DNA of 64,000 nt, from NCBI GenBank assembly GCA_963706025.1, contig CAVPLM010000010.1, positions 31,959 to 95,958 on the forward strand, read 5' to 3'. This DNA comes from an uncultured Actinomycetes bacterium. GTDB taxonomy: Bacteria; Actinomycetota; Thermoleophilia; RBG-16-64-13. Positions 15,881-62,007 of the stretch are shown one piece after another (the stretch's first letter is position 1; every line of letters begins with the position of its first letter). The notes below the pieces were generated by a model. The model ran no database searches and was not told where the DNA came from. It was given only the letters and a program-made list of their open reading frames with translations. Both the position numbers and the translations under genes were made by a program.

Positions 15881-15903
15881 ACGCAGTGGCAACGCGAGAA
15901 TGA

Positions 15904-15990: not shown

Positions 15991-16031
15991 GGAGTGCGCA
16001 CGAGTATAACATAGCCCCCCGTGACGCCTAT

Positions 16032-18170: not shown

Positions 18171-18175
18171 GAGGT

Positions 18176-19028: not shown

Positions 19029-19065
19029 CACCTGGAAGCCGGGAGATGATCCGGGAGATGGGGCA

Positions 19066-19574
19066 ATGCTGCAGATAGTACTGCTGGCCGGGAAGTTCGT
19101 CTTTCTGGTCGTTCTCTACCTGTTCGTCTACAGGGTGATCCGCTCCGCCAGCCGCGAGTTGCGCGCGACCGGCCCGGTCGGCGGCGGGCAGCCGTGGTCC
19201 TCCGAGCTCGACATGCCTGTCGTAGCGGGGGGAGTAGCGGCTTCCGGCGGCGTTCCCCCCGCGCGGGGAGCGGCGTATGGACCCTCGTGGTGCAGAAGAG
19301 CCCCTATCTGCCGGCGGGGGAGGCCTACTCCTTCCCTGTGGGAGCGCACGCCCTGGCCGGGCGTTCTTCCGACATGGACATCTACCTCGAAGACACCTTC
19401 GTCTCGTCCAAGCACGCGCTTTTCGAAGCGGCTGCGGACGGCTTCAAGGTGGAGGACCTGCGCAGCACCAATGGGACTCAGGTGAACGGCTCCGATATCT
19501 CCGGTCCTCGGCAGCTGGGCGCCGGTGACCGGGTGGAGGTGGGCGACACCGTCTTCCAGGTGGAGGTGCGGTGA
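19066..19574 (+). CDS. fhaB: FhaB-like membrane-anchored FHA protein, frameshifted
   Basis: N-terminal TM; GR...DTFVSSKHA...DLRSTNGT. Confidence 0.82.
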
Positions 19575-23717: not shown

Positions 23718-23721
23718 TACT

Positions 23722-23730
23722 TGTGGATAA
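23722..23730 (-). promoter_or_regulatory. Consensus DnaA box
   Basis: TGTGGATAA (= TTATCCACA) in the short pbpA-pknB gap. Confidence 0.45.
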
Positions 23731-23775
23731 GGTAGTATTGCGCGCTATGGACCGTGAGCAAACGGGCGAAACTGC

Positions 23776-46284: not shown

Positions 46285-48216
46285 CTATTCGATGAACTTG
46301 CCCCGATCCACGTAGCTTGTGTGAAGCAACTCGTGGCTCTTGTGGCCGCAAGGCCCGTCGGTGAGGAACTCCTCGTAGACCTTCAGCACCGCTGGATTCT
46401 CGAACGACTTCCGTATGTCGAGAGTCTTTTCTTCGCCGTAGATGGCTCTGGCCCGAGCGGCGCGTATCTCCTTGTTGGTGGGGATGGGTTGGCCGCCACC
46501 ACCAAGGCACCCGCCTGGGCAGGCCATGAACTCGATGAAGTGGCACTCGCTGAACTTGCCGCCGAGCTTGATGTCCTCCATGACCCTGCGGGCGTTGGCC
46601 GTGCCATGGGCCACCGCCACCTTGAGGGTAGCCCCCTTCAGCCATTCCCAGTCGGGCACCAAGTGCGCGAGTAGACCCGGCACTGGGCCGACCTCGCTGA
46701 TGGTCAGCTCTGCGTAGCGGACGCCTTCGAACCCTCGCACCGGCAGGATGTCGCCGTGCTCGTAGATGGTCTCCAGCTTCTTGCCGGTCACCAGCTCCAG
46801 CACCGTCCTCAAGGCCGCCTCCATCACGCCGCCGCTGGCGCCGAAGATGAGGCCCGAGCCGGTGGCGGTCCCGAACGGATCGTCGAACTCGGACTTGGGC
46901 ATGGTGGGGACGTCCAGCCCGGCCTGCCTGAACATCGCTCCGAGCTCGCGGGTGGTTAGGCCGAAGTCGACATCCTTGTAGCCGCTGTCGCGCATCTCCG
47001 GGCGGTTACACTCGAACTTCTTGGCCGAGCAGGGCATGAGGGCCACGCTGACGATGTTGGCCGGGTCCACACCCATCTTCTCGGCGTAGAAGGTCTTGAT
47101 CAGGGCGCCGAACATCTGTTGCGGACTCTTGGCGCTCGAGAGATTGGGGATGTACTCGGGGTAGAAGTGTTCGCAGTACTTGACCCAGCCCGGAGAGCAA
47201 CTGGTGAACTGCGGGAGGGCGACACTCGTATCTCCCTGAACCAGAGCCTTGTAGAGGCGGATGATGAGCTCCGTGCCTTCCTCGATGATCGTAAGGTCGG
47301 CGGTGAAGTTGGTATCGAACACGTGATCGAAGCCCATACGCCGGAGCGCCGTGTTCATCTGGTAGGTGACGGTGGTCCCCGGCTCCAGACCGAACATCTC
47401 GCCCATGGCCGCCCGAGGGGACGGAGCCGTCTGGATGACCACGTGCTTGGTAGGATCGTCAAGGGCTTTCCAAACCGGGGTCAGAGCGGGCTTCGCGTAG
47501 AGGGCAGCCGTGGGACAACGGTTGATGCACTGCCCGCAGTTGATGCAGACCACGTTCGCGAGGGGTTTGTGGAGGAACGTAGAGACCTCGACCTGGTTCG
47601 ACCGGTTGACGGCCTCGAGCACACCCACCTCTTGCACGTCGATGCACGTGCGTATGCAACGGCGGCAGCGGATGCACTTGTTCATGTCGCGCACGACCGA
47701 GTAGCTCGAGTCGTCGACGGGCACCGGGATCTCGGGATGGCCGAAGCGGAACTTGTCGACCCCGTACTCCTCGGCCAGAGACTGCAGCTCGCACTTGCCG
47801 TTGCGGATACAGGCGTAGCAGTCCCCGCAGTGCTCGGAAAGGAGCAGGTCGAGCACGTGACGCCGGGCGATGCGCACCGCCTTGGAGTAGGTGTTGATCT
47901 TGATGGGCGCGGTGATGGGATAGGCGCATGCGGCCTGCAGAGTCCGCTGACCCTCCACTTCGACCACGCAGATTCGGCACAAGCCCGCGACTTCGAGGTC
48001 CGGGTGGTAGCACAGAGTGGGGATGCCGACGCCTATGCTCTTGGCCGCTTCCAGTATGGTCGTGCCCAGGGGTACCTTGGTCTCCATACCGTCGATGGTG
48101 ACGGAGATGTTTGCGCCGAGCGCGTCAGGCGAGACCGACCGCTGCGACTCCGGATCCGGCTGGAAAAGCTGGCTGAGCGGGGCTCGCCGCTTGAGGAGAG
48201 GTGCTTTAGGACTCAT
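46285..48216 (-). CDS. hydA: Group A [FeFe]-hydrogenase catalytic subunit (module 2)
   Basis: 2Fe-2S, His-ligated 4Fe-4S, 2x4Fe-4S; H-cluster motifs FTSCSPGW, MPCSAKKFE, EFMACPGGCLGGGGQP. Confidence 0.95.
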   Translation of the reverse strand: MSPKAPLLKRRAPLSQLFQPDPESQRSVSPDALGANISVTIDGMETKVPLGTTILEAAKSIGVGIPTLCYHPDLEVAGLCRICVVEVEGQRTLQAACAYPITAPIKINTYSKAVRIARRHVLDLLLSEHCGDCYACIRNGKCELQSLAEEYGVDKFRFGHPEIPVPVDDSSYSVVRDMNKCIRCRRCIRTCIDVQEVGVLEAVNRSNQVEVSTFLHKPLANVVCINCGQCINRCPTAALYAKPALTPVWKALDDPTKHVVIQTAPSPRAAMGEMFGLEPGTTVTYQMNTALRRMGFDHVFDTNFTADLTIIEEGTELIIRLYKALVQGDTSVALPQFTSCSPGWVKYCEHFYPEYIPNLSSAKSPQQMFGALIKTFYAEKMGVDPANIVSVALMPCSAKKFECNRPEMRDSGYKDVDFGLTTRELGAMFRQAGLDVPTMPKSEFDDPFGTATGSGLIFGASGGVMEAALRTVLELVTGKKLETIYEHGDILPVRGFEGVRYAELTISEVGPVPGLLAHLVPDWEWLKGATLKVAVAHGTANARRVMEDIKLGGKFSECHFIEFMACPGGCLGGGGQPIPTNKEIRAARARAIYGEEKTLDIRKSFENPAVLKVYEEFLTDGPCGHKSHELLHTSYVDRGKFIE

Positions 48217-49396
48217 GGATATCGTCTCCGAAGTGCTCGAGGATAGAGAGGAACGCCACCGAGCTAGTTTGGCCGAGGCCGCATTTGGCGGCGACCTGCA
48301 TAGTGTTCGCCAGAGCCTTGAGGTCGTTCAGGTACTCGAGAGTGCAGGTGCCCGCTTGGAGCATCTCCACTCCCTCAAGTAGCTTGCCGTTGCCGAGCCG
48401 GCACGGGGTGCACTGCCCGCACGATTCGTCCACGAAGAAGTCGAGCAGATTGTGGGCTATGGCGAGCATATCCCGACCCGGGCCGAACACGACCACCGAG
48501 CCTCCCGTGGGGATGTCTTCGAACGCCAGGCGTCTTTCGAACTGCGATCTGGGCACGCAGCGTCCGGACGCACCGCCGATCAGCACGGCCTTGGCATCCT
48601 CGCCACCCACTTCTTTCAGCAGCTCTCCCACGGTGATCCCGAAGGGGAATTCGTACACTCCGGGCCGTTCGCAATCCCCGGAGACACTAAAGAGCTTGTG
48701 GCCTGTGGAGAGGTCCGTCCCGACGCTCTTGAACCAGTCCACGCCCTTGGCGAAGATGCAGGAGACCCAGGCCAGCGTCTCCACGTTGTTGACCACCGAC
48801 GGGCGGCTCAGGAAACCGGAGACCACCGGGAACGGCGGGCGGTTCCGGGGCTCGCCCCGGAAACCCTCGAGCGATTCGATGAGCGCCGTCTCCTCGCCGC
48901 AGACGTAGGCGCCCGCGCCCATCGCCACCATGATGTCGAAATCGAAGCCCTTGATCCCGCCAATATCCACCCCGAGGAGTCCGGCCTCGCGGCGAGCGTG
49001 GATGGCCTCTTCCAGGCGGGAGCGCAGGTAGCCATACTCGGCCCGTAGGTAGATGAGCCCGAGGGCGGCGTTCATGGCCCGGGCCCCGATGGTCATCCCA
49101 TCCAAGACCAGGTCGGCATACTCTGTGAGGATCAGACGGTCCTTGAAGGTCCCTGGCTCGCCTTCGTCGGCGTTACAGATGATGTACTTGCGGGGGTGCT
49201 TCTCGGCTGCGGCGAAGTTCCATTTGATACCGGTCGGGAATCCCGCCCCGCCACGCCCCTTCAGCTTGGAATCGCGCACGGTGTCGATGATCTCGACCCT
49301 CGACATCGCGAGCGCCTTGGCGAGCCCTTCCCCGGGGGGGACGCTTGCGAAGGTCAACTCGTTGGCCACCGTGGTCACCATTGAATCACTGTTCAT
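48206..49396 (-). CDS. Short NuoF/HydB-like NADH-binding subunit (module 2)
   Basis: GRGGAGF, ADEGEPGTFKDR, GAGAYVCGEE, CGQCTPC...CGLG; no extra Fe-S domains. Confidence 0.92.
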   Translation of the reverse strand: MNSDSMVTTVANELTFASVPPGEGLAKALAMSRVEIIDTVRDSKLKGRGGAGFPTGIKWNFAAAEKHPRKYIICNADEGEPGTFKDRLILTEYADLVLDGMTIGARAMNAALGLIYLRAEYGYLRSRLEEAIHARREAGLLGVDIGGIKGFDFDIMVAMGAGAYVCGEETALIESLEGFRGEPRNRPPFPVVSGFLSRPSVVNNVETLAWVSCIFAKGVDWFKSVGTDLSTGHKLFSVSGDCERPGVYEFPFGITVGELLKEVGGEDAKAVLIGGASGRCVPRSQFERRLAFEDIPTGGSVVVFGPGRDMLAIAHNLLDFFVDESCGQCTPCRLGNGKLLEGVEMLQAGTCTLEYLNDLKALANTMQVAAKCGLGQTSSVAFLSILEHFGDDIHES

Positions 49397-49914
49397 GCTG
49401 TCCGCTCCGGAGCCCGTTTTGTCGCGCGACCTTCTTTGTGGCTGCGATAGTCGTCGACGATCTCGTGCACCATCTCAGGCGTAAGCCGTGAGTAGACCGT
49501 CTCGTTGACGAGCATCGCGGGGCCCTGGTCGCACATGCCCATGCAGTTGGCCCATTCGAGGCTGAAGACCCCGTCTTCCGTAGCCTCCCCGAAACCGATG
49601 CCCAGGTCCTTCTGAAGCTGGCGGGCAACGATGTCTTTGCTCGCCAGGTCGCAGGATAGAGTGCGGCAGAGCCGGAAGACGAAGCGCCCTTCCGCCTGAG
49701 GCTGGGTATAGGCGTAGAAAGTGGCTACCGCGTACACCTCTACCGGATGGATGCCGAGCACGTCGGCGATGAGCTGCATGGCGTAGCTGTCGACGCCCCG
49801 GTACTTCTCTTTGACCTCGCGCAGGATGGGGATGAGTGAGGCGCGGTTGAAGCCTGTGAGCTGCGCGACCGCCATCACATCCTCGCGCAGCCTGTCTCGT
49901 TCGGTGATCAGCAT
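49393..49914 (-). CDS. NuoE/HydC-like 2Fe-2S subunit (module 2)
   Basis: VATFY, CRTLSC, CMGMC. Confidence 0.92.
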   Translation of the reverse strand: MLITERDRLREDVMAVAQLTGFNRASLIPILREVKEKYRGVDSYAMQLIADVLGIHPVEVYAVATFYAYTQPQAEGRFVFRLCRTLSCDLASKDIVARQLQKDLGIGFGEATEDGVFSLEWANCMGMCDQGPAMLVNETVYSRLTPEMVHEIVDDYRSHKEGRATKRAPERTA

Positions 49915-50297
49915 GAGGCCCCTTCCCGTCCCGCGAGCAGCGCCCTCACCTTCTCCACCAGGGCGGCGGGGTCGACCGGCTTCTCCACGAACTCATCGAC
50001 GGGCACGATCTCTTCGTCCTTGTCGATATTCAGTCCCATGGCCCGGTTGACGCTCGTCAACATGAGTATGGGCAGCTTGTGGCCCCTGCGCCTCACTTGA
50101 CGGGCAAAGAGAAGGCCGTCGTCGGATTCCTCCATCATGACATCGAGGATCAGAAGGTCCGGATCGCTCTCCTCGAGCACCTTCAAGCCGTCGACGATGT
50201 TCGACGCGCTTTCGACCGTGTGGCCCTCTCTCTCCAGCACGATCCGACCCGCTTCGACCATATCCGGGTCGTCATCCACAATCAAGATCTTTGGCAC
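49908..50297 (-). CDS. Stand-alone response-regulator receiver
   Basis: ILIVDDD, DLLILDVMM, LTS, KP. Confidence 0.9.
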   Translation of the reverse strand: MPKILIVDDDPDMVEAGRIVLEREGHTVESASNIVDGLKVLEESDPDLLILDVMMEESDDGLLFARQVRRRGHKLPILMLTSVNRAMGLNIDKDEEIVPVDEFVEKPVDPAALVEKVRALLAGREGASC

Positions 50298-50380
50298 AAC
50301 AGCTCTCCCTCACTCGATCAGCACGTTCGCGTAGCACAACCGGCGCCGTTCATCCCCGGTGCCACTGCATGAGGTGAATA

Positions 50381-51607
50381 CTAACTCAGCTGGGGTTCGG
50401 CGGGTAGTGGAGCCGACGTCGCAGCCGAGCCGGTCGCGGCGACGCCGGGCCCAGCGGTGTCACGCGGAGCGGCGTCACCCGTCACCGCGTCGCGCAGCGT
50501 GACCGTGAAGATGCTGCCGGCGCCCTTCTCGCTCTTCACGGTGGCGTCGCCGCCGTAGAGTTGGGCCAGCTTGCGCACCGTGGAGAGCCCCAGACCGCTA
50601 CCCAAGATCTTGATCGTGTCCTCGTTCTTGATGCGCACGAACTCGGTGAAGAGCTTGGCGCTCTCCTCGGGGGTCATGCCGATCCCGGTGTCGGCCACAG
50701 TAATGCGGACCGTGTCGCCCTCACGGACGAGAGCCACGGTCACGCTGCCTCCGTCGCGGTTGTACTTGACCGCGTTGGAGACGAGATTGTTGAGGACTAT
50801 CTCGAGCTCGTCGGGGTCGGCGATCATCTCCACGGGATCCGGCGCGCGCAGAGTGATGGTGATGCTCCGTTCGGCAGCTTCGGTCGCAAAGAGGTCGATG
50901 GCCGCTTTGGCGGGGGTGCGAACGTCAACTTCAGCGAAGCTGCGCTGCTTCTGCCCCGATTCGATGCGAGTCAGGTCGAGCAGGTCGAAGATGAGCTTGC
51001 GCATCCCGTCGAGCCGGATCAGGCTGCGGTCGATCATCGGCAGGGGCTCAGGGGGCTCGTCCATCTGCAGGATCTTGAGGTAGCCCTCGATGGCGTTGAG
51101 GGGAGCCTTCAATTCGTGTGCCAGCACGGAGATGAAATTGAAGCGCACCTGACGCTTCTCCTCGGCCAACCTACGGGCCTCCCGGCTGATGATCAGTTGA
51201 TCGGTGGCCTTGCGGACCGCATACCTCAGTTCTTCCGGAGAGAACGGTTTGGGCAAGAAATCGAAGGCCCCCAGCTTCGTGGCCTGGACCGCGGTCTCGA
51301 AAGTGGCGTAGGCCGTGATCATGATGGTGAGGATGCTGCGGTTCCGTAGACCGAGCTCGGTCAAGACATCCAGGCCGCTCATGCCGGGGAGCTTCAGATC
51401 GAGGAGCAGCAGATCGTACCCGGCTCCTGCGGCGATACTCTCGAGAAACTGCTCGCCGCTCGTGAAATGGATGGAGTCGTAGGTGACCGCGACGCCCACT
51501 TCGGCGACGTCCGCCTGGTACTTGGCCAGGATGCGGCGGACGGCGAGGCAGAGGGGCTCTTCGTCGTCCACCATGGCGACTCTGAGTACCTGTGTCTGCT
51601 CTCCCAC
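50381..51607 (-). CDS. Hybrid REC-histidine kinase
   Basis: VDDEE...LLDLKLP REC; HELKAPL H-box; NAVKY, DTGIG, GSGLGL. Confidence 0.92.
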   Translation of the reverse strand: MGEQTQVLRVAMVDDEEPLCLAVRRILAKYQADVAEVGVAVTYDSIHFTSGEQFLESIAAGAGYDLLLLDLKLPGMSGLDVLTELGLRNRSILTIMITAYATFETAVQATKLGAFDFLPKPFSPEELRYAVRKATDQLIISREARRLAEEKRQVRFNFISVLAHELKAPLNAIEGYLKILQMDEPPEPLPMIDRSLIRLDGMRKLIFDLLDLTRIESGQKQRSFAEVDVRTPAKAAIDLFATEAAERSITITLRAPDPVEMIADPDELEIVLNNLVSNAVKYNRDGGSVTVALVREGDTVRITVADTGIGMTPEESAKLFTEFVRIKNEDTIKILGSGLGLSTVRKLAQLYGGDATVKSEKGAGSIFTVTLRDAVTGDAAPRDTAGPGVAATGSAATSAPLPAEPQLS

Positions 51608-51613
51608 TGGCGG

Positions 51614-53794
51614 TTATCTAGTAGGCGCCCAGCCGGCGCCGGTGTTCGCGGTGGCGGGCGCAACGGCGGCGCTCTCAGGTAAGGCCGTCTCTGCCCACAG
51701 GCCGGCGCCGGTGGCGACCAGCGCACCCGGGGCCGGCTCATCGATGCCCCCGGAGGCCATCCCGGGGCTCCCGCCGGCGGAGCCCCGCTCCTCGCGGCGC
51801 GGCAGCGCGATGGTGAAAGTCGTGCCCCGGGGCCCGGCGGAAGGATCGGCGTTCGACTCCACCGTGATCTGTCCCCGGTGCATCTTGACGATGCCGTGGG
51901 TGACCGCCAGTCCGAGGCCGGTGCCCATGCCCACTTGCTTGGTGGTGAAGAACGGGTCGAACAGTTTGGCCATGTTCTCCTTGGCTATACCTTCTCCCGT
52001 GTCGGAGACCCGGATGGTCACCGTCTCCGGGTCGTCGCTCAGACTGATGCCGAGCAGTCCGCCCTCCGGCATGGCATGCTGGGCGTTGCTGAACAGGTTG
52101 GTCAGCACCTGTACGATCTGGTCGGCGTCGATCTCGGCTATCGGGTCGGCGAGCTTGCCGCGCACCTCTACGGACACGTTCTCCTCTACCGGAGCCATGC
52201 GCACGACCTTCTCCACCAACTCCTCGACGTCCGTCGGTTGACGGACCACCCGGCTCTGGCGGGCGAAGTTGAGCAGGCCGGAGATGATGCGCTTGCAGCG
52301 GTTGGCCTGGTCTACGATGGTCTCCAGGTCCTCTCTGACCTGCGCATCCTCTTCGCACTCCTCGAGCAACAGGTTGGCGTGCAGGAGGAGGGTGCCCAGA
52401 GGGTTGTTGACCTCGTGGGCGATGCCGGCGGCCAATTGACCCATGCTGGCCAGCTTGCCCGAGCGCTCCAAGGCTTCCTGGGCGTCCTCGAGCGAGCGGT
52501 GCGATTCTTCCAGATCGTCGTACGCGGCGCGCAGCTGCTCGATGGTGTGAGGCAGGCACATCTCCGAGCCGGCCAGCCCGGCGTAGAAGGCGCGGGCGTG
52601 TTCGAGGCAGCTCTCATACCCGCAGGCGCCGCAGTTGAGCAGGTCCTCGGCTGTGAACTTGCCCATGCGGTGGAGGATCTCCTCCAGCTCTTCTGGAGTG
52701 GCCGAATCGCCCAGGGTCTGTTCGTCGACGTCGTGCTCCCGAGACAGGTCGAGGTTGCGATACTTCTCCTTCGCCCCCTCGATCTCAGCCGACTGCTCTT
52801 CGGTGTATTTGCCCAAACGGTCCCTGGCGTACGCACTCACGCGGGTCCGCCGCTGGAGCATGGTGACGTCACTGGTCATGCCGGCTCCCGCGTAGCAGCC
52901 CTGGCAGGCCAGTACGTCCAGAAGCCGGGTATCGGCGTGGGACACGTCGAACTCGCTGATCGTGTCGACGAACTCGTCCCTTCCCTCGGCGATGATCACC
53001 TCGCCGCTCAGGAGGTCTTCCTTCATCTCGGCGGTCTGTAGCAATCCTCCCGCGATGGGGAACACCATCCCCACGCCACCGTATGGGGGGTCGAAGTCGT
53101 CTTCGTCGGTGAAGGCCTCAGGCTTGATGCCGCGCTTTTCGAACATGTCTCGCAGCTCGGCGAAAGTGAGGACCGCTTCGATCTCGTGGTGTGTGAAGTC
53201 GATGGATGCGCGCTTCTTGGCCACGCATGGGCCCATGAAGACCACCTTGAGGTCTTGTCCCAGCTCGTGGCGCAACACCCGCGCCATGGCCACCATCGGA
53301 GAGACCAGGGGCGCCAGATTGGGCATGAGGCGGGGATGGTACTTGCGCACGTAAGAGACCACGGCCGGGCAAGGAGTGGTGATGTAGCGCTTGTCCGGAT
53401 TCTCCTCCAGCAAGCGGCGATACGCCTCCGCCACCAGATCGGCGCCCAACGACACTTCATGCACCGAATCGAAGCCGAGCGCCCTGATCATCGCCACGAG
53501 CTTCCCGGTCGGGATGTCGACGAACTCCGCGGGGAAGCTGGGCGCCACCATGGCTGCCACCTGCGCGCCCGACCCGAGCACTTCGAAGGTCCGTTCGGTG
53601 TCGTCGCGCACCTGCTTGGCATTCTGGCTGCACACACGCAGGCAGTTTCCACAACCGATGCAGCGCGGTTGGATGACGCTGGCCTGCCCGTCGACCACTC
53701 GGATCGCCTTGGCAGGGCATTCCCGCACGCACGCATAGCACATGCGGCACTTGTCGGTGACGATCGTTATGAGGGGGTTGTCCCAGGTGGGCAT
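51614..53794 (-). CDS. Sensory (group C-like) [FeFe]-hydrogenase domain fused to histidine kinase
   Basis: 2x4Fe-4S; variant H-motifs TTPCPAVV, GPCVAKK, DVLACQGC; FeS domain CGACGYESC..C; HEVNNPL, DTGEG, FFTTK, GTGLGL. Confidence 0.88.
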   Translation of the reverse strand: MPTWDNPLITIVTDKCRMCYACVRECPAKAIRVVDGQASVIQPRCIGCGNCLRVCSQNAKQVRDDTERTFEVLGSGAQVAAMVAPSFPAEFVDIPTGKLVAMIRALGFDSVHEVSLGADLVAEAYRRLLEENPDKRYITTPCPAVVSYVRKYHPRLMPNLAPLVSPMVAMARVLRHELGQDLKVVFMGPCVAKKRASIDFTHHEIEAVLTFAELRDMFEKRGIKPEAFTDEDDFDPPYGGVGMVFPIAGGLLQTAEMKEDLLSGEVIIAEGRDEFVDTISEFDVSHADTRLLDVLACQGCYAGAGMTSDVTMLQRRTRVSAYARDRLGKYTEEQSAEIEGAKEKYRNLDLSREHDVDEQTLGDSATPEELEEILHRMGKFTAEDLLNCGACGYESCLEHARAFYAGLAGSEMCLPHTIEQLRAAYDDLEESHRSLEDAQEALERSGKLASMGQLAAGIAHEVNNPLGTLLLHANLLLEECEEDAQVREDLETIVDQANRCKRIISGLLNFARQSRVVRQPTDVEELVEKVVRMAPVEENVSVEVRGKLADPIAEIDADQIVQVLTNLFSNAQHAMPEGGLLGISLSDDPETVTIRVSDTGEGIAKENMAKLFDPFFTTKQVGMGTGLGLAVTHGIVKMHRGQITVESNADPSAGPRGTTFTIALPRREERGSAGGSPGMASGGIDEPAPGALVATGAGLWAETALPESAAVAPATANTGAGWAPTR

Positions 53795-54270
53795 CAGACC
53801 TCCTCGTCGGCGCTTCGGTTGTCGGCGCCGCAACTCGAGTCGCCGACCGACGCGCCCCGGGCGCGTCGGGCCGACAGCAGTCCGGCGATGGCGGCGATCA
53901 GCCGGGTGGGATCGAGCGGTTTGTCGAAGTATGCGTCCACGTGCATATGGGCCATGTCCTCATCCGAGCGGGGGCGGAAATCGAGCCCCATAGCGCTCGA
54001 CACGGACGTGGCGATGACGACCGGGATGTCCGCGTATCGTGGGTCTTCTTTGATGGTGCGGGAGAAGGAGAAGCCGGAGTCGATGCTGGTCATCATCAGG
54101 TCGGTGATGACCAGGTCCGGCTTCTCCGCCTCCATCCTGGCGAACGCCTGACGCGGCTCGGCCGCGGTGACCACGCGATAGCCCGCCCTCTCGAGGATCA
54201 TGCGATTGATCTCGAGGAAGTCGTAGTCGTCGTCGACGATGAGTATGAGTGCGGACGTGTCTGTAGTCAT
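53794..54270 (-). CDS. Stand-alone response-regulator receiver
   Basis: ILIVDDD, DLVITDLMM, ATS, KP. Confidence 0.9.
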   Translation of the reverse strand: MTTDTSALILIVDDDYDFLEINRMILERAGYRVVTAAEPRQAFARMEAEKPDLVITDLMMTSIDSGFSFSRTIKEDPRYADIPVVIATSVSSAMGLDFRPRSDEDMAHMHVDAYFDKPLDPTRLIAAIAGLLSARRARGASVGDSSCGADNRSADEEV

Positions 54271-54308
54271 GGCATCTTCACAATAGCACGGGTCGTTTTC
54301 CCCGCTCC

Positions 54309-56081
54309 CTATACCCGCTCCTTCTCCGTGTACTTGGTGTGCAACAACTTATGCGAGGTCTTGCCTAACGGCTCACCCAGGAACTCGTCGTAGAGGGCCA
54401 TCACTTCCGGGTTCTCGTGCGACTTGCGCAGCTCGCGCCCCTCGTCCTCGGCATAGATGGCACGGATACGGGCCTGCCGCACCGCGTCCGAGGTCAGACG
54501 GGGTTGGCCGCCGCCGCCGATGCAGCCACCGGGGCAGGTCATCACTTCGACGAAGTGGTAGGCCTTCTCGCCGCTGCGGACGCGGTCGATCACCTTCTGG
54601 GCGTTGGCCAGCCCGTGAGCCACGGCCACGTTGAGCGTCGCTCCTTTCAGAAACTCCCACTCCGGAGTGGTCCGCTCGATGGTTACCGAGGCTTCCTTGA
54701 CGCCGTCGAGACCGGCGATGGGAGTGACGTGCAGGTTGGCGAAGGGGAAGGACTCGCCGGTGACGATCTCATACGCCGTCCGCAAGGCCGCCTCCATGAC
54801 CCCGCCGGTCACGGCAAAGATATCCGCCGCCCCGGTCGAGATGCCGAGGGGCTTGTCCATCTTGTCGTCGGGAAGGCTGGTGAAGTCGATGCCGGCCTGT
54901 TTGACCATGCGGGCCAACTCGCGTGTGGTGAGGACCATGTCGACGTCGGGTACACCATCGGACCCCATCTCAGGGCGGGCGCACTCGAACTTCTTGGCCG
55001 TGCAGGGCATGACCGATACCACCACGATATTCTCGGGCTTGATGCCGAGCTTCTTGGCGTAGTAGGTCTTGGCCAGGGCGCCGAACATCTGCTGGGGCGA
55101 CTTGCACGTGGACAGGTTGGCGAGCATGTCTGGGTTGTAATGCTCCATGTAGTTGATCCAACCCGGGGAGCAGCTGGTGAACATGGGCAGGGCCACCTGC
55201 TCGCCGTCCACCAGGGCCTTCTTCAGCCGGGTCAGGAGTTCCGTCCCCTCTTCCATGATGGTGAGGTCGGCGGTGAAGTTGGTGTCGAACACCGCGTCGA
55301 AACCCAGACGACGGAGGGCCGCCACCATCTTGCCGGTGACCACAGTGCCGGGCTCGTAACCGAACTCCTCTCCGAGCGCTCCCCGGATGGCAGGAGCGGT
55401 CTGGACGATCACATGTTTGCTCGGGTCGTCCAGCGCAGCCCACACTTGTTCGATGGCGGTGTGCTCGGTGATAGCCCCGACCGGGCACACAGCGGCGCAC
55501 TGGCCGCACTGCACGCAGGTGACGTCGCTTAAGTTGCTGGCGAACGCCGGGCCGATGAGAGTGGTGAACCCCCGGCCCTGTGGGAAGAGCGCGCCCACAC
55601 CCTGGATCTCGTTGCAGACGGTGACGCAACGACGGCAGGACACGCACTTGCCGGTGTCTCGCACCAGCGCGGGGGTAGTGGAATCGCTCATCTTCCGCGT
55701 CTTCTCACCCGCATAGGGGATGTCGGTGATATGCAGGTCGATGGCCAACTGGCGGAGCTCGCAGTCGCCGCTGCGGACACACGTCTGGCAGTCTCCGTCG
55801 TGCTCCGAGAGCAACAGTTCGAGGACCGCCCTCCGCCCCTCGCGCGCGCGGTGGGTGTTGGTCCTCACCACCATGCCGTCGTCCGCCGGCTGAGCGCAGG
55901 ACGCGACCAGCGTCCGCGCTCCCTCGACTTCCACCAGGCACAGGCGGCAGGCGCCGATGGTCTGTACGCCCTCCAGGTAGCAGAGCGTGGGTATCTTGGC
56001 GCCGGCCTGGCGGCAGGCATCCAAGAGGGTGGTGCCTTCCGGCACCTCGACTTTGATGTCGTCTACAGTGAGGACTGGCAT
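54309..56081 (-). CDS. hydA: Group A [FeFe]-hydrogenase catalytic subunit (module 1)
   Basis: FTSCSPGW, MPCTAKKFE, EVMTCPGGCIGGGGQP; accessory Fe-S domains. Confidence 0.96.
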   Translation of the reverse strand: MPVLTVDDIKVEVPEGTTLLDACRQAGAKIPTLCYLEGVQTIGACRLCLVEVEGARTLVASCAQPADDGMVVRTNTHRAREGRRAVLELLLSEHDGDCQTCVRSGDCELRQLAIDLHITDIPYAGEKTRKMSDSTTPALVRDTGKCVSCRRCVTVCNEIQGVGALFPQGRGFTTLIGPAFASNLSDVTCVQCGQCAAVCPVGAITEHTAIEQVWAALDDPSKHVIVQTAPAIRGALGEEFGYEPGTVVTGKMVAALRRLGFDAVFDTNFTADLTIMEEGTELLTRLKKALVDGEQVALPMFTSCSPGWINYMEHYNPDMLANLSTCKSPQQMFGALAKTYYAKKLGIKPENIVVVSVMPCTAKKFECARPEMGSDGVPDVDMVLTTRELARMVKQAGIDFTSLPDDKMDKPLGISTGAADIFAVTGGVMEAALRTAYEIVTGESFPFANLHVTPIAGLDGVKEASVTIERTTPEWEFLKGATLNVAVAHGLANAQKVIDRVRSGEKAYHFVEVMTCPGGCIGGGGQPRLTSDAVRQARIRAIYAEDEGRELRKSHENPEVMALYDEFLGEPLGKTSHKLLHTKYTEKERV

Positions 56082-59000
56082 TACTTCACGTCTCCTTGGG
56101 TATCGGCGACAGTCGCCGCCTCGGCGCCGGCCGTCGTGGCCCCCACCGGGATCTTGCCGTAGTCGCAGCGCAGGCAGCGCTTGGCCTCGGCGCAGGCGGT
56201 GTCGAGGTTCCAGGACAGCTCCACTTCATCGAAGGTGCAGGCCCGGGCCTCGGGGTCGAGGCACACGACCCCGGCCCGCGGAGTCTCCACCGGGTCGGCG
56301 TCGGGATCGAAGAACACGTCGACCGCGATGTCGCGACGCCAGAAGGCGTGGTTGGCTCCGGTGAGGAGCTGGTCGATGGCCACGGCGGCCCGCTCGCCCG
56401 CGCCCACGGCTTCTACCACCGAGGCCGGGCCGGTGACCGCGTCCCCTCCGGCGAAGAGCCACTCCACACTGGTGGCGCCGGTGGAGCGATCGGTCTTGAA
56501 CCAGCCGTTCTGCAGCTCCACCGGCATGTCACCGACGAGCTCCTGAGCGTTGAGCGACTGGCCGACGGCCGCGATCACGTGGTCGCAGAGCACGGTGAAG
56601 TCGGGATTGCGCCCGGCCACCGGACGGCGCCGGCCGCTCCTGTCGTAGTCGCCCAGGGCCATCTGCTGGCACAGGACGCCGGTGAGCTTACCGGTGGCGT
56701 CGCGAAGGATCTGCTTGGGCGCGGTCAAGGGCAATACGGTGATGCCCTCCTCGTCGGCGGCCAGGATCTCCTCGGCCCAGGCGGGCATCTGCTCGCGCTG
56801 GCGCCGGTAGAGGATGGTCACGTGGTTCGCCCCGAGGCGGAGAGCCGTGCGCGCGGCGTCGATGGCTGAGTTACCGCCTCCGACGATGGCCACCTCTTTG
56901 CCCACCCAGGTGGTGCCGTGCACGTTGTATTCGCGCAAGAAGGTGAGACCATCACTGACTCCTGCGCCTCTTTCCCCGGGGATGCCCAGAGCGATGCCCG
57001 CGGGGGCTCCTACACCGAGGAACACCGCCTCATAGCCTTCGGCGCGCAGACCTGCGAGTGTCAAGTCGCGCCCCAGAGCCTTGCCGGTCTCGATCTTGAC
57101 GCCCAGGCTCTCGATCATGCTGATCTCGCGTCCCAGCTCTTCCCGGGGGAGCCGGTAGGCCGGGATGGCCTGCACCAGCATGCCGCCCGGGCTGGGCTCT
57201 TTCTCGAAGATGGTGGGCGCATATCCGAGCCGGGCCAGGAAATAGGCGCAGGACAGGCCGGCCGGACCGCTCCCGACGATCGCCACCTTCTTCGCGGCGT
57301 TCTCGGCGCTCGCGCGGACCTCCGGCACTTGGACCTCGGTCTCTTGCTCGGTCATGAAGCGCTTAAGGCTGCGGATGGCCACCGATTCGTCGAGGGAGGC
57401 ACGCTGGCACTTACTCTCGCAGGGATGGAAGCACACCCGGCCGCAGATGCTGGCCAGGGGGTTGCGCTCCCGGTGCAGCTTGAGGGCCTCGTCGAAGCGC
57501 TTCTCGCCGATGAGGCTGACGAAGCCGGGCACGTTCACATCGGCCGGGCAGGCGTTGGTGCACCGGGCGGTGAACATGGTCGAGCAGACGCCCGCTTCGC
57601 AGTAGTGGTCCTTGATGTGGGCCTCGTACTCGTGGCGGAAGTGGCGGATCGTGGACAGCACCGGGTTGGCGGCCGTCTGCCCCAGACCGCACAGAGCGGT
57701 GTCTTTGATGATGTTGCCCAGGTCGATGAGCCTCTCGATGTCGCCCTCTTCGCCCTCACCGTTGCAGATGCGGGTGACGATCTCGAGCATGCGCTTGGTC
57801 CCCACCCGGCAGGGCGGGCACTTGCCGCAGCTCTCGTCCTGGATGAAGTCGAGGAAGTAGCGGGCCACGTCGACCATGCAGCTGTCGTCGTCCATGACGA
57901 TGCAGCCGCCGGAGCCCATGATGGCGCCGAGCTCCTGCAGGGTCTCGTAGTCGACCGGGATGTTCAGGTCGGTCTTGGGGATGCAGCCCCCGGAGGGACC
58001 GCCCAGCTGCACGGCCTTGAGTTCCTTGCCATCCGGCACGCCGCCGCCGATCTCGTATACGATCTCGCCCAACTGCACCCCGATGGGCACCTCCACCAGG
58101 CCTGCATGCTGGATGGCGCCGCCGAGCGCGAACACTTTGGTGCCCTTGCTCTTCTCTGTGCCGGTACTCGCGTACCACTCAGCCCCTTTCAGGATGATGG
58201 GGGCGATGTTGGCGAAGGTCTCGACGTTGTTGAGCACGCTGGGTTTGTCCCAGAGGCCCTTGACCGCGGGGAACGGGGGACGGGGCCGGGGCTCGCCGCG
58301 TTGCCCCTCGATGGAGCGCATGAGGGCGGTCTCCTCACCGCAGACGAACGCGCCGGAGCCCATGCGGATCTCGAGGTCGAACTCGAAGCCGGTCCCCATG
58401 ATGTCGGTGCCCAGGAGCCCCAGTTCCCGCGCCTGGTCGATCGCGTACTGGAGCCGCTCGACCGCCAGCGGATACTCGGCGCGCAGATAGACGAATCCTT
58501 GCTTCGCGCCGACAGCATAGGCCCCGATGGCCATGCCTTCGATAAGGCTGTGCGGGTCGCCTTCCAGCACCGACCGGTCCATGAAGGCGCCGGGGTCACC
58601 CTCGTCGGCGTTGCAGATGATGTACTTGACGTCGGACTCGGTCTGCCGGGCGAACTTCCATTTGAGCCCGGTCGGGAAGCCGGCGCCGCCGCGGCCGCGC
58701 AGGCCGCTGCGGAGCACCTCGCTCACCACGTCGGCCGGTTCCATCTCGGTGAGGACCTTGGCCAGGGCCTGGTAGCCCTCGCGGGCGATGTACTCCTCGA
58801 TCTTGAGCGGGTCGATGATCCCGGAGTTGCGCAGGACGATCTTGACCTGCCGGTTGAAGAACTCCACGTCGCCCATCTCGGCGACCGTCTTGTCGGTACC
58901 CGGGGCGTGGCTCACCAGCCGCTCTACGATCCGGCCTTTGAGCAGGTGCTCCTCCACGATCTCGTGGACGTCTTCTATCTTGACGTTCTGGTAGAAGACC

Positions 59001-59191
59001 CCGTCCGGGTAGACGAGGATCACCGGTCCTACGGCGCACGGTCCCAGGCAGCCGGTCTCGACGACCCGGTTCTCCTGGGCCAGGCCCATGTCTTCCAGTT
59101 CTTTGCTGAAGGCGGCGCTGACTTCGAGCGCCCCCGATGCGATGCACCCGCCCCCCGTGCAGACGAGGACGTGGTTCTTGATGTGATCCAT
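56081..59191 (-). CDS. hydB: HydB/NuoF subunit fused to GltD/NfnB-like FAD oxidoreductase
   Basis: Trx-like 2Fe-2S; ADEGDPGAFMDR, GAFVCGEE, GGPSGG; then CTNACP, CGRVCFHPCESKC, GSGPAG, GGGNSAID, AGGD. Confidence 0.9.
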   Translation of the reverse strand: MDHIKNHVLVCTGGGCIASGALEVSAAFSKELEDMGLAQENRVVETGCLGPCAVGPVILVYPDGVFYQNVKIEDVHEIVEEHLLKGRIVERLVSHAPGTDKTVAEMGDVEFFNRQVKIVLRNSGIIDPLKIEEYIAREGYQALAKVLTEMEPADVVSEVLRSGLRGRGGAGFPTGLKWKFARQTESDVKYIICNADEGDPGAFMDRSVLEGDPHSLIEGMAIGAYAVGAKQGFVYLRAEYPLAVERLQYAIDQARELGLLGTDIMGTGFEFDLEIRMGSGAFVCGEETALMRSIEGQRGEPRPRPPFPAVKGLWDKPSVLNNVETFANIAPIILKGAEWYASTGTEKSKGTKVFALGGAIQHAGLVEVPIGVQLGEIVYEIGGGVPDGKELKAVQLGGPSGGCIPKTDLNIPVDYETLQELGAIMGSGGCIVMDDDSCMVDVARYFLDFIQDESCGKCPPCRVGTKRMLEIVTRICNGEGEEGDIERLIDLGNIIKDTALCGLGQTAANPVLSTIRHFRHEYEAHIKDHYCEAGVCSTMFTARCTNACPADVNVPGFVSLIGEKRFDEALKLHRERNPLASICGRVCFHPCESKCQRASLDESVAIRSLKRFMTEQETEVQVPEVRASAENAAKKVAIVGSGPAGLSCAYFLARLGYAPTIFEKEPSPGGMLVQAIPAYRLPREELGREISMIESLGVKIETGKALGRDLTLAGLRAEGYEAVFLGVGAPAGIALGIPGERGAGVSDGLTFLREYNVHGTTWVGKEVAIVGGGNSAIDAARTALRLGANHVTILYRRQREQMPAWAEEILAADEEGITVLPLTAPKQILRDATGKLTGVLCQQMALGDYDRSGRRRPVAGRNPDFTVLCDHVIAAVGQSLNAQELVGDMPVELQNGWFKTDRSTGATSVEWLFAGGDAVTGPASVVEAVGAGERAAVAIDQLLTGANHAFWRRDIAVDVFFDPDADPVETPRAGVVCLDPEARACTFDEVELSWNLDTACAEAKRCLRCDYGKIPVGATTAGAEAATVADTQGDVK

Positions 59192-59242
59192 ATCAGATTC
59201 CCTCGTTATAGATTAGAGCGCGCACGCTTGGCACGGCAGGTT

Positions 59243-59627
59243 CTAGGCCGACTTGACAAGATAGGCCGACACCGGGGTGCCGCCCACCAGATGCGATCTC
59301 CACGATCTCGTGCACCTTGTCCCGGCTTTCCAGATGCCCGTAGTGGAACACGCCGCCGTCGGCGAACTGCACCGTGGCCATCGGCTCCATCTCGCACAGG
59401 CCGGCACAGCCGGACTGGTGGATGGTCACGTTGTCGAGCTTCGCGTCGGCTATCTCGCTGAAGAAGGCGACCACCACGTCCCGAGCCCCGGCGGCTATTC
59501 CGCAGGTGCCCATGTGGACCGTGACCTTGATCTCCTTGGCCCCCGAACGCAGGTCGATACCCTCCTTGGCCTTGCCGGCCATGGCCAGCAGCTCCGCAGG
59601 GCTCTTGATCTTCTCGGGCATGATCAC
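59243..59627 (-). CDS. Thioredoxin-like [2Fe-2S] ferredoxin subunit (HydD/HndB-like; 3' frameshift)
   Basis: VHMGTCGIAAGAR, SGCAGLCEMEP; shifted end HLVGGTPVSAYLVKSA*. Confidence 0.85.
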
Positions 59628-60220
59628 ATGCTCCTTTCGCCGGCTCCGACCGCGACGGGCTCACCCGCTGCGGGTTCCGGGCAGTACTGGACGAGGATCG
59701 CGTTCACTCGAGCGGGCTTGACCCGATGGTGGACGATGTCGTTGACCGTGATGACCGGGGCCAGTCCGCAGGCGCCGAAGCAGCGCGCCACCTCGAGTGA
59801 GAATTCCCGGTCTTCGGTCGTTTCGCCCACGTCGATCCCCAGTTCCTTTCTCAAGGCGTCGAGGACGGCCATGCTGCCGCGCACGTAGCAGGCCGTACCC
59901 AGACAGACGCGGATGAGGTTGCGTCCCCGCGGTACGGTCGAGAAGAACGAGTAGAAGCTGACGACCCCCGCCACCTCGCTGTAGGGCTTGTCCATCCTCC
60001 TGGCGATGTGCTTGAGAGCGACCTCGGGAAGGTACCCGAAGATCCCCTGGGCCTGCTGCAACACGGGGATCAGCGCACCCGGCCGGTCCTCGTAGCGGTC
60101 GATCACTTCGTCGAGCCGGGCGAGCAGCTCCTCTTCGGATGCCTCCTCGCAGCACCCCGAACAGCCGCCGTGTGCGCCGTTTGTTCCGTTAGTTTTCTCG
60201 GTCTCGTCGGGCATCCTCAT
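59624..60220 (-). CDS. hydC: NuoE/HydC-like 2Fe-2S subunit (module 1)
   Basis: LIPVLQQAQGIFGYLP, CLGTAC, CFGACGLAP. Confidence 0.93.
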   Translation of the reverse strand: MRMPDETEKTNGTNGAHGGCSGCCEEASEEELLARLDEVIDRYEDRPGALIPVLQQAQGIFGYLPEVALKHIARRMDKPYSEVAGVVSFYSFFSTVPRGRNLIRVCLGTACYVRGSMAVLDALRKELGIDVGETTEDREFSLEVARCFGACGLAPVITVNDIVHHRVKPARVNAILVQYCPEPAAGEPVAVGAGERSM

Positions 60221-60314: not shown

Positions 60315-60812
60315 TCAGGTCACGAGCCCCTCCGTATAACGGGCAAGCCGGTCGGCGCCCTCGGCGAGCGGCGCGTCAACGAGCGGTGGCTCGAACTCGT
60401 CGCCCGACAGGCTCACGGTGAACTCGATCTGGGGATTGGTCGCAGCCATGACTACCATCGTTGTGGCCACATCCCCCAAGGGGAGTCGGTCCACATGGCT
60501 GAACCTCATGTAGACGGTCACTCTTGTACCCCCCGAATACTCAGAGGGCCCGATGTCAAGACCGCCCTCCGCCGCTTCGGCTTCCGCTTTCAGCAAACTC
60601 AGCCCCAAGCCGGTCTTCTTGCCCGGCTTCGTGGTGTAGAAGGGGTCGAGAGTCTGCTCGGGGCTGGCGGTGAGCCCGTGCCCGTCGTCGTCCACGGTCA
60701 GCCACAACTCGTCGGAGCTGCGGTCGATGACCAGGCCTACGTCGACCCGGTCGGCCCCGGCCCGCACCGAGTTCTCAAGCATCTCCAGCAGATAGAGGGA
60801 GAGGTCATGCAT
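60315..60812 (-). CDS. Stand-alone HATPase_c protein
   Basis: MHDLSLYLLEMLENSVRAGA, DDGHG, DPFYTTK, GLGLSL, SHVDRLPLGD. Confidence 0.85.
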   Translation of the reverse strand: MHDLSLYLLEMLENSVRAGADRVDVGLVIDRSSDELWLTVDDDGHGLTASPEQTLDPFYTTKPGKKTGLGLSLLKAEAEAAEGGLDIGPSEYSGGTRVTVYMRFSHVDRLPLGDVATTMVVMAATNPQIEFTVSLSGDEFEPPLVDAPLAEGADRLARYTEGLVT

Positions 60813-61597
60813 GGGCCCCGCTCCCTCCCTCCGCGATCCTGCCCTGCACGGTCCTGCCCTCCGCCCCGGCGAGCGCCAAGGCCAATTCGGCAAAAGTCGC
60901 GTCCTTGACCCACAACTCGGTAGCGGCGGTGCCTATCTCCTCGAGGAAGTGGCTGTCGGAGGAGCTGGTCATGGGCAGCCCCAGATCCGCGAACTCCTCC
61001 AGACGGGGGGAGTCCGAGACGCAGGTGGCGCGATACCTCCACCCCGTCGAATCCCGCGTCTTGAGGGAAGAAGCCCAGCTGAGAGAAGACGCTGAACGAC
61101 TTGCGGTCCACGTGGGCGGCAATGGCCAATCCTCCGACGCTATGGACCAGTTCCACGCTCTCGGTGAGATCGAGCGGAGTGGCCAGAGCCAGGCAGGCAG
61201 TCTCGGCGCCTGTGGCATGGCCGTCGGCCGCCAGCACCGGCTGTTCGCCGAAGAAGGCGTAGTAATCGGGGTCCGCGGCCGGGAGATGGGCGCGGATCTT
61301 GGCTGCCACCTCTTCGGCTGCCGCCAGGTCGGGGAACAGGCCCAACACATGCACTTCCTCGACGCTGGTTATCTCCATGCCGGCAAGTACCGCCAGCCTG
61401 CCTCCGGCCACCTGGGCCGCCTGCTGGGTAGCGCCGACGTTGCCCGCGGTGTTGTGGTCGCAGACGGCGATCATGTCAAGCCCTTTCGCCAGCGCCGCGG
61501 CGACGATCGCAGGCGGCGTCATCTCGTCCGACCCGCACGGCGAAAGCGCCGTGTGGACGTGCAGGTCGGCACGGATCGATCTGAGGCTCGGTCTCAT
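60805..61597 (-). CDS. PHP-domain phosphoesterase (frameshifted)
   Basis: DLHVHTALSPC, CDHN, AHVDR, SSDSH. Confidence 0.88.
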
Positions 61598-61643
61598 AGC
61601 TGCCGGCTCGGCGCTCAAACATGGTTTCCTTCCGCTGGCGGCT

Positions 61644-62007
61644 TCATGCGGCACTTCCTCTGATGCCCAGTTCGTGGAGGCGGCCGACGACGTCGAACGT
61701 GTCGGCGGGGGTGGCGTAAAGCGAGAGGCCTTCCTCGGCCGCCCTCTCGATGATCTCGTCGTCGGGGATCCGCCCGCAGGAGAAGATGACCGCGCGCAGG
61801 CCGGCGTGGCTGGCGACGGCGATGACGTTCAGATGCACCTGCAGAGTCACGAGGACTCCTCCGACCGGGGCGTGAGCCAAGACGTCGCTCAGCAGATCGG
61901 ACGCATAACCTCGAGTGATGTCGGCGTCGCCCCGCCTCGTCTGTCACGCCCAGTGCGGGGGTGAGCTCCTTGAGAGCCAGGGACTGGGCCAATTCCTGTA
62001 GTCTCAT
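61644..62007 (-). CDS. DRTGG-domain protein (frameshifted)
   Basis: MRLQELAQSLAL...VLVTLQVHLNVIAVA...DTFDVVGRL. Confidence 0.78.

Follow-up and report, generated by a model that had tools for sequence, protein, structure and literature searches.

Two [FeFe]-hydrogenases of predicted different cofactor use and a putative sensory relay in a conserved locus of uncultured Actinomycetota

Both of the enzyme architectures that concern us here are already in print, as sub-types I and II of the BfuABC [FeFe]-hydrogenases (Zheng & Huang 2024, PMC11406978). In sub-type I, the B3/B4 domain of the flavoprotein BfuB is replaced by DPD_II and a C-terminal FAD/NAD(P)-binding domain, and a second bifurcation centre might lie at the FAD; sub-type II is without B3, B4 and B5, is said to "lack bifurcating ability", occurs in Actinomycetota, and is found in strains that nearly always hold another sub-type as well. 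Genes of group C, the putatively sensory [FeFe]-hydrogenases, adjoin group A3 genes in that survey (21 of 53 C1 genes). We analyzed a 64,000-nucleotide stretch of DNA (the window: positions 31,959 to 95,958 of contig CAVPLM010000010.1, assembly GCA_963706025.1) from an uncultured Actinomycetes bacterium, in which 11 co-directional genes, all on the minus strand and spanning 46285-60220, encode a hydrogenase resembling sub-type I (module 1), a sensory relay, and a hydrogenase resembling sub-type II (module 2). This arrangement is real, conserved and new; each of its parts is of a known kind, and the layout is better than chance by a wide margin. We put at about 0.5 the probability that it works as read below, as the H2-metabolism locus of an anaerobic actinobacterium in which a sensory relay stands between a sub-type I enzyme and a non-bifurcating one and acts on the latter.

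Closest described systems and layout of the locus

Module 1 shares with published sub-type I BfuABC(D) enzymes a BfuB with DPD_II and an FAD/NAD(P) domain, the frequent presence of BfuD, and Ser at the fifth position of the P1 motif (TSCSP). Those enzymes were published for Hydrogenedentota and reference genomes, whereas here the host belongs to Actinomycetota and the enzyme lies beside a kinase-fused sensor and a sub-type II enzyme. The NADPH/FAD/2x[4Fe-4S] module found on g3, the flavoprotein of module 1, is also joined to a Bfu BC core in the Stn/Nfn-Bfu transhydrogenases (PMC7483475; PMC9304861; structures 9bov, 8oh5 and 9n5u); there, however, it sits in BfuA and replaces the H-cluster, whereas in g3 it sits on BfuB and replaces B3/B4, and an H-cluster subunit is also present. 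Module 2 shares with the Syntrophomonas wolfei-type enzymes of sub-type II a minimal NuoF that bears the T/K and Y signatures, departs from GGPSG and is free of additional Fe-S domains. Its NuoE is separate, as in S. wolfei, and the NuoE-NuoF fusion of Syntrophus aciditrophicus is mirrored in relatives of the locus. Unlike those enzymes, module 2 is led by a receiver-domain gene.

For the relay, the closest parallels are the group C sensors. In Ruminococcus albus, such a sensor is transcribed together with a hydrogenase under H2 regulation, at a level 111-fold lower in co-culture (PMC6776011). R. albus HydS, Thermotoga maritima HydS and the HydDB groups C1 and C3 share with g6, the sensor of this locus, the lack of a proton-relay Cys, a link to signalling, and a position beside catalytic hydrogenases (PMC5037454, PMC6776011, PMC8924675). 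They differ in having PAS and a phosphatase partner, whereas the H-domain of g6 is fused directly to HisKA and HATPase_c, and g6 sits in a set of two kinases and three receivers. The response regulator of the [NiFe] group 2b regulatory hydrogenases binds DNA. In those systems as well, H2 is sensed by a hydrogenase that signals through two-component partners to control the expression of hydrogenase genes (PMC5037454), but the metal centre is unrelated and no DNA-binding response regulator is present at this locus.

In the literature covered, which leaves supplementary figures S4 and S5 of PMC11406978 outside, where similar clusters could appear, we found no description of the three-block layout, of the two-kinase, three-receiver set, or of a non-bifurcating hydrogenase operon that opens with a receiver gene. 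Apart from PMC11406978, none of the literature covered describes a HydB-GltD-type fusion, and the portion of Data Set S1 of that paper that was searched held nothing relevant.

The genes of the cluster, with intergene junctions of -11 to +83 nucleotides (nt), are as follows (REC, receiver domain; aa, amino acids):

g1, 59624-60220, minus strand: NuoE/HydC (BfuC) with a thioredoxin-like [2Fe-2S] domain, module 1 (PF01257, E 7.7e-49)
g2, 59193-59627, minus strand: small BfuD/HydD/HndB-like thioredoxin-fold protein with only 3 Cys, module 1 (sequence matches given below)
g3, 56081-59191, minus strand: HydB-like flavoprotein of 1,036 aa, BfuB core plus NADP(H)/FAD module, module 1 (Pfam, motifs, alignments)
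g4, 54309-56081, minus strand: HydA1, M3-type [FeFe]-hydrogenase catalytic subunit, module 1 (Pfam, NCBIfam)
g5, 53794-54270, minus strand: stand-alone REC (PF00072)
g6, 51614-53794, minus strand: sensory-type [FeFe]-hydrogenase (2x[4Fe-4S], H-domain, PF04060) fused to HisKA and HATPase_c (Pfam)
g7, 50381-51607, minus strand: hybrid REC-HisKA-HATPase_c kinase (Pfam)
g8, 49908-50297, minus strand: stand-alone REC, first gene of the module 2 unit (PF00072)
g9, 49393-49914, minus strand: NuoE2, module 2 (PF01257, E 1.1e-39)
g10, 48206-49396, minus strand: NuoF2, minimal flavoprotein of 396 aa with FMN and one [4Fe-4S] only, module 2 (Pfam, motifs)
g11, 46285-48216, minus strand: HydA2, M3-type [FeFe]-hydrogenase catalytic subunit, module 2 (Pfam, NCBIfam)

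An earlier reading of the same DNA, made by a model from the letters and their open reading frames (ORFs) and referred to here as the original prediction, had described one co-directional cluster of these genes, and we recovered all 11 at these coordinates on the minus strand. Its account of the middle block as REC, sensory hydrogenase-histidine kinase, REC-kinase and REC is borne out by Pfam and by alignment of the H-domain, and the three motifs that it gave for each flavin subunit, six in all, were located in g3 and g10. The last REC gene does overlap the start of the module 2 nuoE, as it had stated: g8 and g9 share 7 nt, ATGCTGA. At the other end of the relay, the stop of g5 overlaps the start of g6 (TGATG) behind a GAGGAGG ribosome-binding site, so we place the g6 start at 53794, which gives a protein of 726 aa.

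Flavoproteins and catalytic subunits of the two modules

The original prediction had set the two flavin subunits apart at three sites that it regarded as diagnostic. These sites are identical to sequence criteria published by Losey and colleagues (PMC7311640), under which a non-bifurcating enzyme is recognised by T or S together with K, S or A where NADH binds, by Tyr where FMN binds, by the lack of GGPSG and by a beta subunit free of additional Fe-S domains. In g10, DEGEPGTFK lies at residue 77 (T83/K85), GAYVCGEE at 162 (Y164) and GGASG at 274. Its only Pfam domains are Complex1_51K, SLBB and NADH_4Fe-4S, with no extra Fe-S domain; g10 is the NuoF core only, in agreement with what had been claimed of it. 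No Cys of g10 aligns to the ligands Cys438 and Cys476 of the B2 cluster, and the protein ends short of His525, Cys531 and Cys536. On all four of the published points, then, g10 is predicted to be of the non-bifurcating, NADH-only kind, and module 2 fits the sub-type II pattern, a call that rests on motifs and on domain loss.

The flavoprotein of module 1 carries the opposite motifs. DEGDPGAFM is found at residue 196, GAFVCGEE at 280 and GGPSG at 397, so that g3 carries the bifurcating-type residues A202/M204 and F282 along with GGPSG by the same criteria, which for bifurcating enzymes call for A or E with M, for F, and for GGPSG. Residues 5-540 align without gaps to the bifurcating HydBs of Acetomicrobium mobile (786 bits) and Acetobacterium woodii (783 bits). 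In A. mobile HydB, the B2 cluster is held by Cys438, Cys476, Cys531, Cys536 and His525 (PMC8880783), and all five ligands occur in g3 at identical numbers. The ligands of the N-terminal B5 [2Fe-2S] cluster (Cys11/16/48/52) are likewise retained, with PF01257 at residues 5-81. The core of g3 consists of the B5 [2Fe-2S] cluster, the FMN/NADH site, the B1 [4Fe-4S] cluster and the B2 ligands.

The match to HydB chains stops near residue 543. Beyond it, the C-terminal half of g3, which the original prediction had overlooked, is made of Fer4_20 and Pyr_redox_2 and is GltD/NfnB-like (Pfam). Over residues 543-1010 there are matches to the NADPH modules of Bfu-type Nfn/Stn proteins (9bov_A, E 2.9e-106; 9n5u_A; 8oh5_C) and also to T. 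maritima NfnB (4ylf_B). GSGPAG and GGGNSA...YRR are both present, and the GxGxxA and YRR segment is conserved against the aligned chains; GxGxxA was proposed to be NADP-specific in the Stn paper (PMC7483475). The module as a whole is made of a DPD_II 2x[4Fe-4S] domain, an FAD Rossmann domain and an NADPH Rossmann domain. What is missing from g3 is the ferredoxin-like C-terminal domain with the B3/B4 [4Fe-4S] clusters, the proposed ferredoxin site of HydB (PMC8880783), in whose place the NADP(H)/FAD module stands by both Pfam and alignment.

Because the B3/B4 domain is replaced by this GltD/NfnB-like half, we file g3 as a sub-type I variant and not as a canonical HydABC subunit, and ferredoxin coupling of module 1 cannot be assumed. 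The likeness to T. maritima and A. woodii HydB drawn in the original prediction holds for the FMN/B1, B2 and B5 regions and the bifurcating motifs and breaks down at B3/B4; its further claim of a ferredoxin-coupled enzyme finds no support, given this replacement of the proposed ferredoxin domain.

The g3-type fusion is widespread. Nearly all of the best 120 cluster representatives (68-94% identity) are of about 1,000-1,060 aa, the exceptions being P0042 (974 aa, a partial record) and P0113 (808 aa), and all 120 appear from the table to carry NuoF and Fer4_20/Pyr_redox domains. In a second set, the best 150 representatives at 50% identity, there are 10 to 13 full-length fusions of this type, 35-51% identical. 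The small partner g2 has no Pfam match; its relatives include the N-terminal, thioredoxin-like part of Bfu flavoproteins (9n5u_B, E 5e-8), and it is 42% identical to residues 13-80 of g3, and fits the role of BfuD by sequence.

The catalytic subunits of the two modules are alike: g4 and g11 are 51% identical to each other and both pass NCBIfam NF040763 (886 bits for g4, with a cut-off of 765). The H-cluster motifs of g4 are L1 TSCSPGW, L2 MPC (MPCTAKKFE) and L3 CPGGC, with MTCPGGCIGGGGQP; g11 shares TSCSPGW, in which Ser takes the place of the proton-relay Cys. We considered this Ser as a sign of an abnormal or sensory enzyme and rejected the idea, because the characterised A. woodii HydA1, the best PDB match of g4, has the identical motif; TSCSPGW is no anomaly in g4 or g11. 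Ser is, moreover, common at the relay position in four of the five Bfu sub-types (PMC11406978). Among relatives of the locus, TSCSPGW occurs in 13 of 17 loci bearing HydA1 and in 20 of 20 bearing HydA2; the pattern was not found in the HydA1 of the distant loci L011, L018, L022 and L025.

Conservation of the locus and its surroundings

Scanning species-representative genomes with g6 returned 65 loci, and the 27 with a full-length relative (58-82% identity) were counted; genes were mapped in them by tblastn, and the counts extend as far as the contigs reach. All but one (26/27) are from uncultured Actinomycetota, Thermoleophilia or Gaiellales. The 38 remaining loci (L028-L065), which are kinase-half matches or otherwise distant, were left out of the synteny counts. 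No NuoE, NuoF or HydA1 match occurs in them, and L055 alone has a weak HydA2-like match (69 bits), on an H-domain gene that is closer to g6 (199 bits). The 27 loci have the following layouts:

g1-g11 all colinear, 11 loci: L002, L003, L007, L011, L015, L016, L018, L020, L023, L025, L026
colinear to the contig end, 5 loci: L006, L014, L017, L022, L024
g8-g11 inverted right after g7, 3 loci: L004, L009, L010
module 1 and relay present, module 2 inverted about 6 kb away, 2 loci: L005, L027
no module 2 within 10 kb, 1 locus: L001
formate-dehydrogenase variants, HydA2 absent, 5 loci: L008, L012, L013, L019, L021

Synteny in relatives had been set beforehand as a test on which the original prediction could fail, and the prediction came through: 16 of the 27 loci are colinear as covered, 11 of these with all of g1-g11. 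The relay core g5-g6-g7 is adjacent in all 27 wherever the contig covers it. In every relative in which both genes could be delimited (12/12), g8 adjoins g9, and the junction measures -7 to +13 nt across the window and these 12 loci. Wherever the contig reaches, g8 lies beside the NuoE2/NuoF2 matches, including in the inverted L004 and L010 and in five of five formate-dehydrogenase variants; the tie between the last REC and module 2 that had been claimed thus extends to rearranged relatives. The spacer between g7 and g8, at 83-393 nt, could accommodate a promoter of its own; in L023 it reaches 2,985 nt, with about 3 kb (13201-16165) inserted between the two genes.

The motifs are conserved with the genes. 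GAFVCGEE and GGPSG are present in 17/17 loci with a g3 orthologue and DEGDPGAFM in 16/17; the orthologue in L007 reads DEGDPGRVH, next to a frame break. DEGEPGTFK, GAY[VI]CGEE and GGASG are found in all 25 loci with a g10 orthologue.

The formate-dehydrogenase layout was established by Pfam for L012 and by the tblastn pattern alone for L008, L013, L019 and L021. Between g3 and g5, L012 carries genes for a formate transporter, a formate dehydrogenase alpha subunit and a Crp-like protein (4432-9473); the alpha subunit is split at an in-frame stop, which we would guess to be a selenocysteine codon. NuoE2 and NuoF2 are fused in this locus (13689-15434, 581 aa), and no HydA2 follows. Since 5 of the 27 loci are without HydA2 and have formate dehydrogenase instead, the relay is not bound to a hydrogenase pair as such, and the diaphorase linked to the sensor may work with formate in addition to H2.

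Two loci contain repeats, which could be real duplications or else assembly artefacts: L003 has a second g6 fragment with g7, g8 and g9 (13891-15811, a partial tandem repeat), and L022 has two copies of the N-terminal half of g3 (118-3381).

Upstream of g1 in the window lie four further accessory genes that the original prediction had overlooked:

60315-60893, minus strand: HATPase_c-only protein, about 165 aa in L002 (PF02518)
60737-61654, minus strand: PHP-domain protein (PF02811)
61644-61880, minus strand: DRTGG-domain protein, a 78-aa ORF, 133 aa in L002 (PF07085, E 1.9e-6 in the window, 5.4e-7 in L002)
62004-63807, minus strand: fourth H-domain-like gene, with SpoIIAB/HATPase_c_2, 2x[4Fe-4S], weak Fe_hyd_lg_C and PF04060 (Pfam, NCBIfam)

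The last of these is split in the window by a frameshift into ORFs of 465 aa (62410-63807) and 190 aa (62004-62576). Its orthologue in L002 (18-1736) is intact, with 572 aa, from which the window differs by indels in a linker rich in G, A and P; the broken gene is either a pseudogene or the product of an assembly indel. Three other genes of the window, for GatB (40449-41582), a penicillin-binding transpeptidase (22615-23717) and a heavy-metal P-type ATPase (43309-46003), are each split into two ORFs as well, so assembly indels are likely, rather than gene decay. The window also holds, on the plus strand at 16470-25806, an actinobacterial-type cluster for cell division and signalling (a Ser/Thr kinase, two FHA proteins, PP2C, FtsW/RodA, a penicillin-binding protein and a PASTA kinase), followed by the core genes GlyQS, PPDK, DnaG and sigma-70. 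The hydrogenase locus therefore lies in the core chromosome, in no obvious island.

The putative sensory relay and what it may act on

The H-domain of g6 keeps the four Cys ligands of the H-cluster; its TTPCPA, GPC and ACQGC motifs align to HydA1 of Thermoanaerobacter kivui, relative to which g6 has Pro where the proton-relay Cys is expected and an L3 motif one residue shorter. A pattern of this kind, without the relay Cys, has been described for putative sensory enzymes (PMC8924675). The signalling domains HisKA and HATPase_c lie within the same polypeptide and are found again in g7, and Response_reg domains occur in g5, g7 and g8 (Pfam). The receivers g5 and g8 are paralogous, 39% identical, and have in common a stretch past the beta-4 Thr, SV..AMGL...D...V..F..KP. 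In g8, D8-10, D52, T81 and K106 are invariant in 23 sequences.

On the reading that we prefer, module 1 (g1-g4 with the upstream accessory genes) would be a Bfu-family [FeFe]-hydrogenase of sub-type I in which NAD(H) reacts at the FMN and the low-potential branch, we infer, ends at NADP(H) by way of the appended module. Such an enzyme would couple H2 to NAD(H) and NADP(H) alike, with ferredoxin use possible and not required. Module 2 (g8-g11) would be a transcription unit of its own, headed by the receiver gene g8, and would encode an [FeFe]-hydrogenase of sub-type II and of the S. wolfei type, non-bifurcating and using NADH only, that works only at very low H2. In the relay (g5-g7), the presumed signal, H2, would bind at the H-cluster of g6, a putative group C sensor, and set its kinase activity, and phosphoryl groups would pass among the three receivers, the last of which, g8, may be the output acting on module 2, either through transcription or on the enzyme itself.

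To estimate equilibrium H2 levels, we used a potential of -380 mV for NADPH. The other inputs were -414 mV for H+/H2, and -280 mV and -500 mV from the abstract of PMC9304861. With these values, Nernst arithmetic puts the equilibrium H2 at ~3 Pa for NADH alone, ~150 Pa for NADH with NADPH, and ~15 kPa for NADH with ferredoxin. Because these equilibria differ, two enzymes for different H2 ranges would make sense; which of them is favoured at which H2 level we purely infer.

Several observations weigh against this reading. Sub-type I enzymes are, according to the authors who defined them, unstudied to date (PMC11406978), and H2 sensing by group C proteins is still termed putative (PMC8924675; PMC5037454). 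Pfam and NCBIfam show no output domain, DNA-binding or enzymatic, in g5, g7 or g8, and no DNA-binding regulator lies inside the cluster; a regulator of LuxR type at 1287-2003 is 48 kb off and paired with its own kinase. A scan for promoters and terminators, not tuned to this phylum, gave one promoter-like site against 1.5 expected from shuffled sequence and nine terminator-like sites against 7.6. The best solved match of g10 is HoxF (5xf9) with 327 bits, against about 304-314 bits for bifurcating HydBs, scores too close for g10, which has no especially close solved relative, to be placed in this way, and we dropped that approach. Lastly, given L001, L005 and L027, in which module 2 is displaced or is not found within 10 kb, and the variants without HydA2, the relay may govern the NuoEF diaphorase unit and not a choice between two hydrogenases.

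The original prediction had gone further and proposed a transcriptional switch set by the H2 partial pressure (pH2), in which low H2 would turn on the NADH-only enzyme and high H2 a bifurcating HydABC coupled to ferredoxin. A pH2 switch is plausible and this mechanism is partly supported: g3 and g10 bear opposite diagnostic motifs, 16 of the 27 loci have the sensor between the two modules, and by analogy the transcriptomic response of R. albus offers a precedent for choosing between hydrogenases according to H2 by means of a group C sensor (PMC6776011). In the form proposed we nonetheless consider it unlikely. The domain on which ferredoxin coupling would depend is replaced in module 1, which also has its own sensor-like and regulatory genes upstream, and the variants without HydA2 retain the relay. 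The receivers, moreover, are all without an output domain, DNA-binding or other, and the cluster holds no DNA-binding output at all, which further weighs against a transcriptional switch.

It is also possible, though improbable in our estimate, that control is exerted on the enzyme directly, with g8 (and perhaps g5) as a phospho-switchable subunit on NuoE2/NuoF2 that gates NADH-linked production of H2 or formate while transcription is unchanged. The translational coupling of g8 to nuoE2 argues for this idea. So does the fact that g8 keeps its place next to NuoE2/NuoF2 in loci with an inverted module 2 and in those that lack HydA2 and carry a NuoE2-NuoF2 fusion; moreover, the phospho-acceptor residues of g8 are invariant although the protein is without an output domain. 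Because g8 is without an output domain and never apart from NuoE2/NuoF2, we modelled its docking on these two proteins. The predicted complex scored 0.60 (0.60, 0.64 and 0.60 in separate runs), against 0.02 for the best of three controls; the pLDDT confidence of the partners was at least 85, contacts agreed between runs to at least 97%, and the score fell to 0.00 when NuoF2 was replaced. In calibration, 116 of 157 solved complexes reached the pass mark, as did 2 of 215 mismatched pairs; only 18 of those 157 complexes scored 0.60 or less, and so did both of the mismatches that passed. The model thus hints at binding of g8 to NuoE2/NuoF2, with the reservation that, for guesses not already likely, a pass at 0.60 is wrong more often than it is right.

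Gene fusions gave no independent sign of such binding. Among the 120 longer relatives of NuoE2 listed, out of 217 matches, all have NuoE and nearly all are fused to NuoF domains, most at ~565 aa, but none carries a receiver (PF00072, 0/120), and we dropped this line of evidence. Receiver domains are not known to serve as subunits of hydrogenases. A more detailed version of direct control seems quite improbable to us; in it, the sensor kinase, instead of or besides acting on transcription, would phosphorylate the stand-alone receivers as regulatory subunits, g8 would dock on NuoE2/NuoF2 and gate NADH-driven H2 production (in the variants, formate) within seconds, and module 1 would be ferredoxin-independent, using NADH and NADPH together at intermediate H2.

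We consider plain clustering just as improbable; in it, the blocks are neighbours since hydrogen-metabolism genes cluster, and the relay responds to the redox state by way of its Fe-S clusters, or to a signal of another kind, and controls targets elsewhere in the genome: the receivers have no output domain, group C sensing is unproven (PMC8924675; PMC5037454), H-cluster motifs are hardly found in some HATPase-bearing group C proteins (PMC11406978), and the positions of the modules vary among relatives, but g6 retains its four H-cluster Cys ligands, and the stop/start overlaps at g5/g6 and g8/g9 suggest co-expression of the relay with the enzyme genes.

On our preferred reading, a kinase-fused sensor, three receivers and two enzymes of predicted different cofactor use are brought together in one conserved unit. 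The locus is a compact test system for the H2 sensing that is ascribed, still as putative, to group C [FeFe]-hydrogenases (PMC8924675; PMC5037454) and for the targets of that sensing. With a predicted sub-type I enzyme that carries an NADP(H) module and a predicted NADH-only enzyme side by side, it would allow a direct comparison of how electrons from NAD(P)H are disposed of at different H2 levels, a question that bears on syntrophy and on hydrogen and formate exchange. Binding of a receiver to the diaphorase, if true, would be a new mode of redox-enzyme regulation, and the layout could let the cell match its enzyme to the H2 level.

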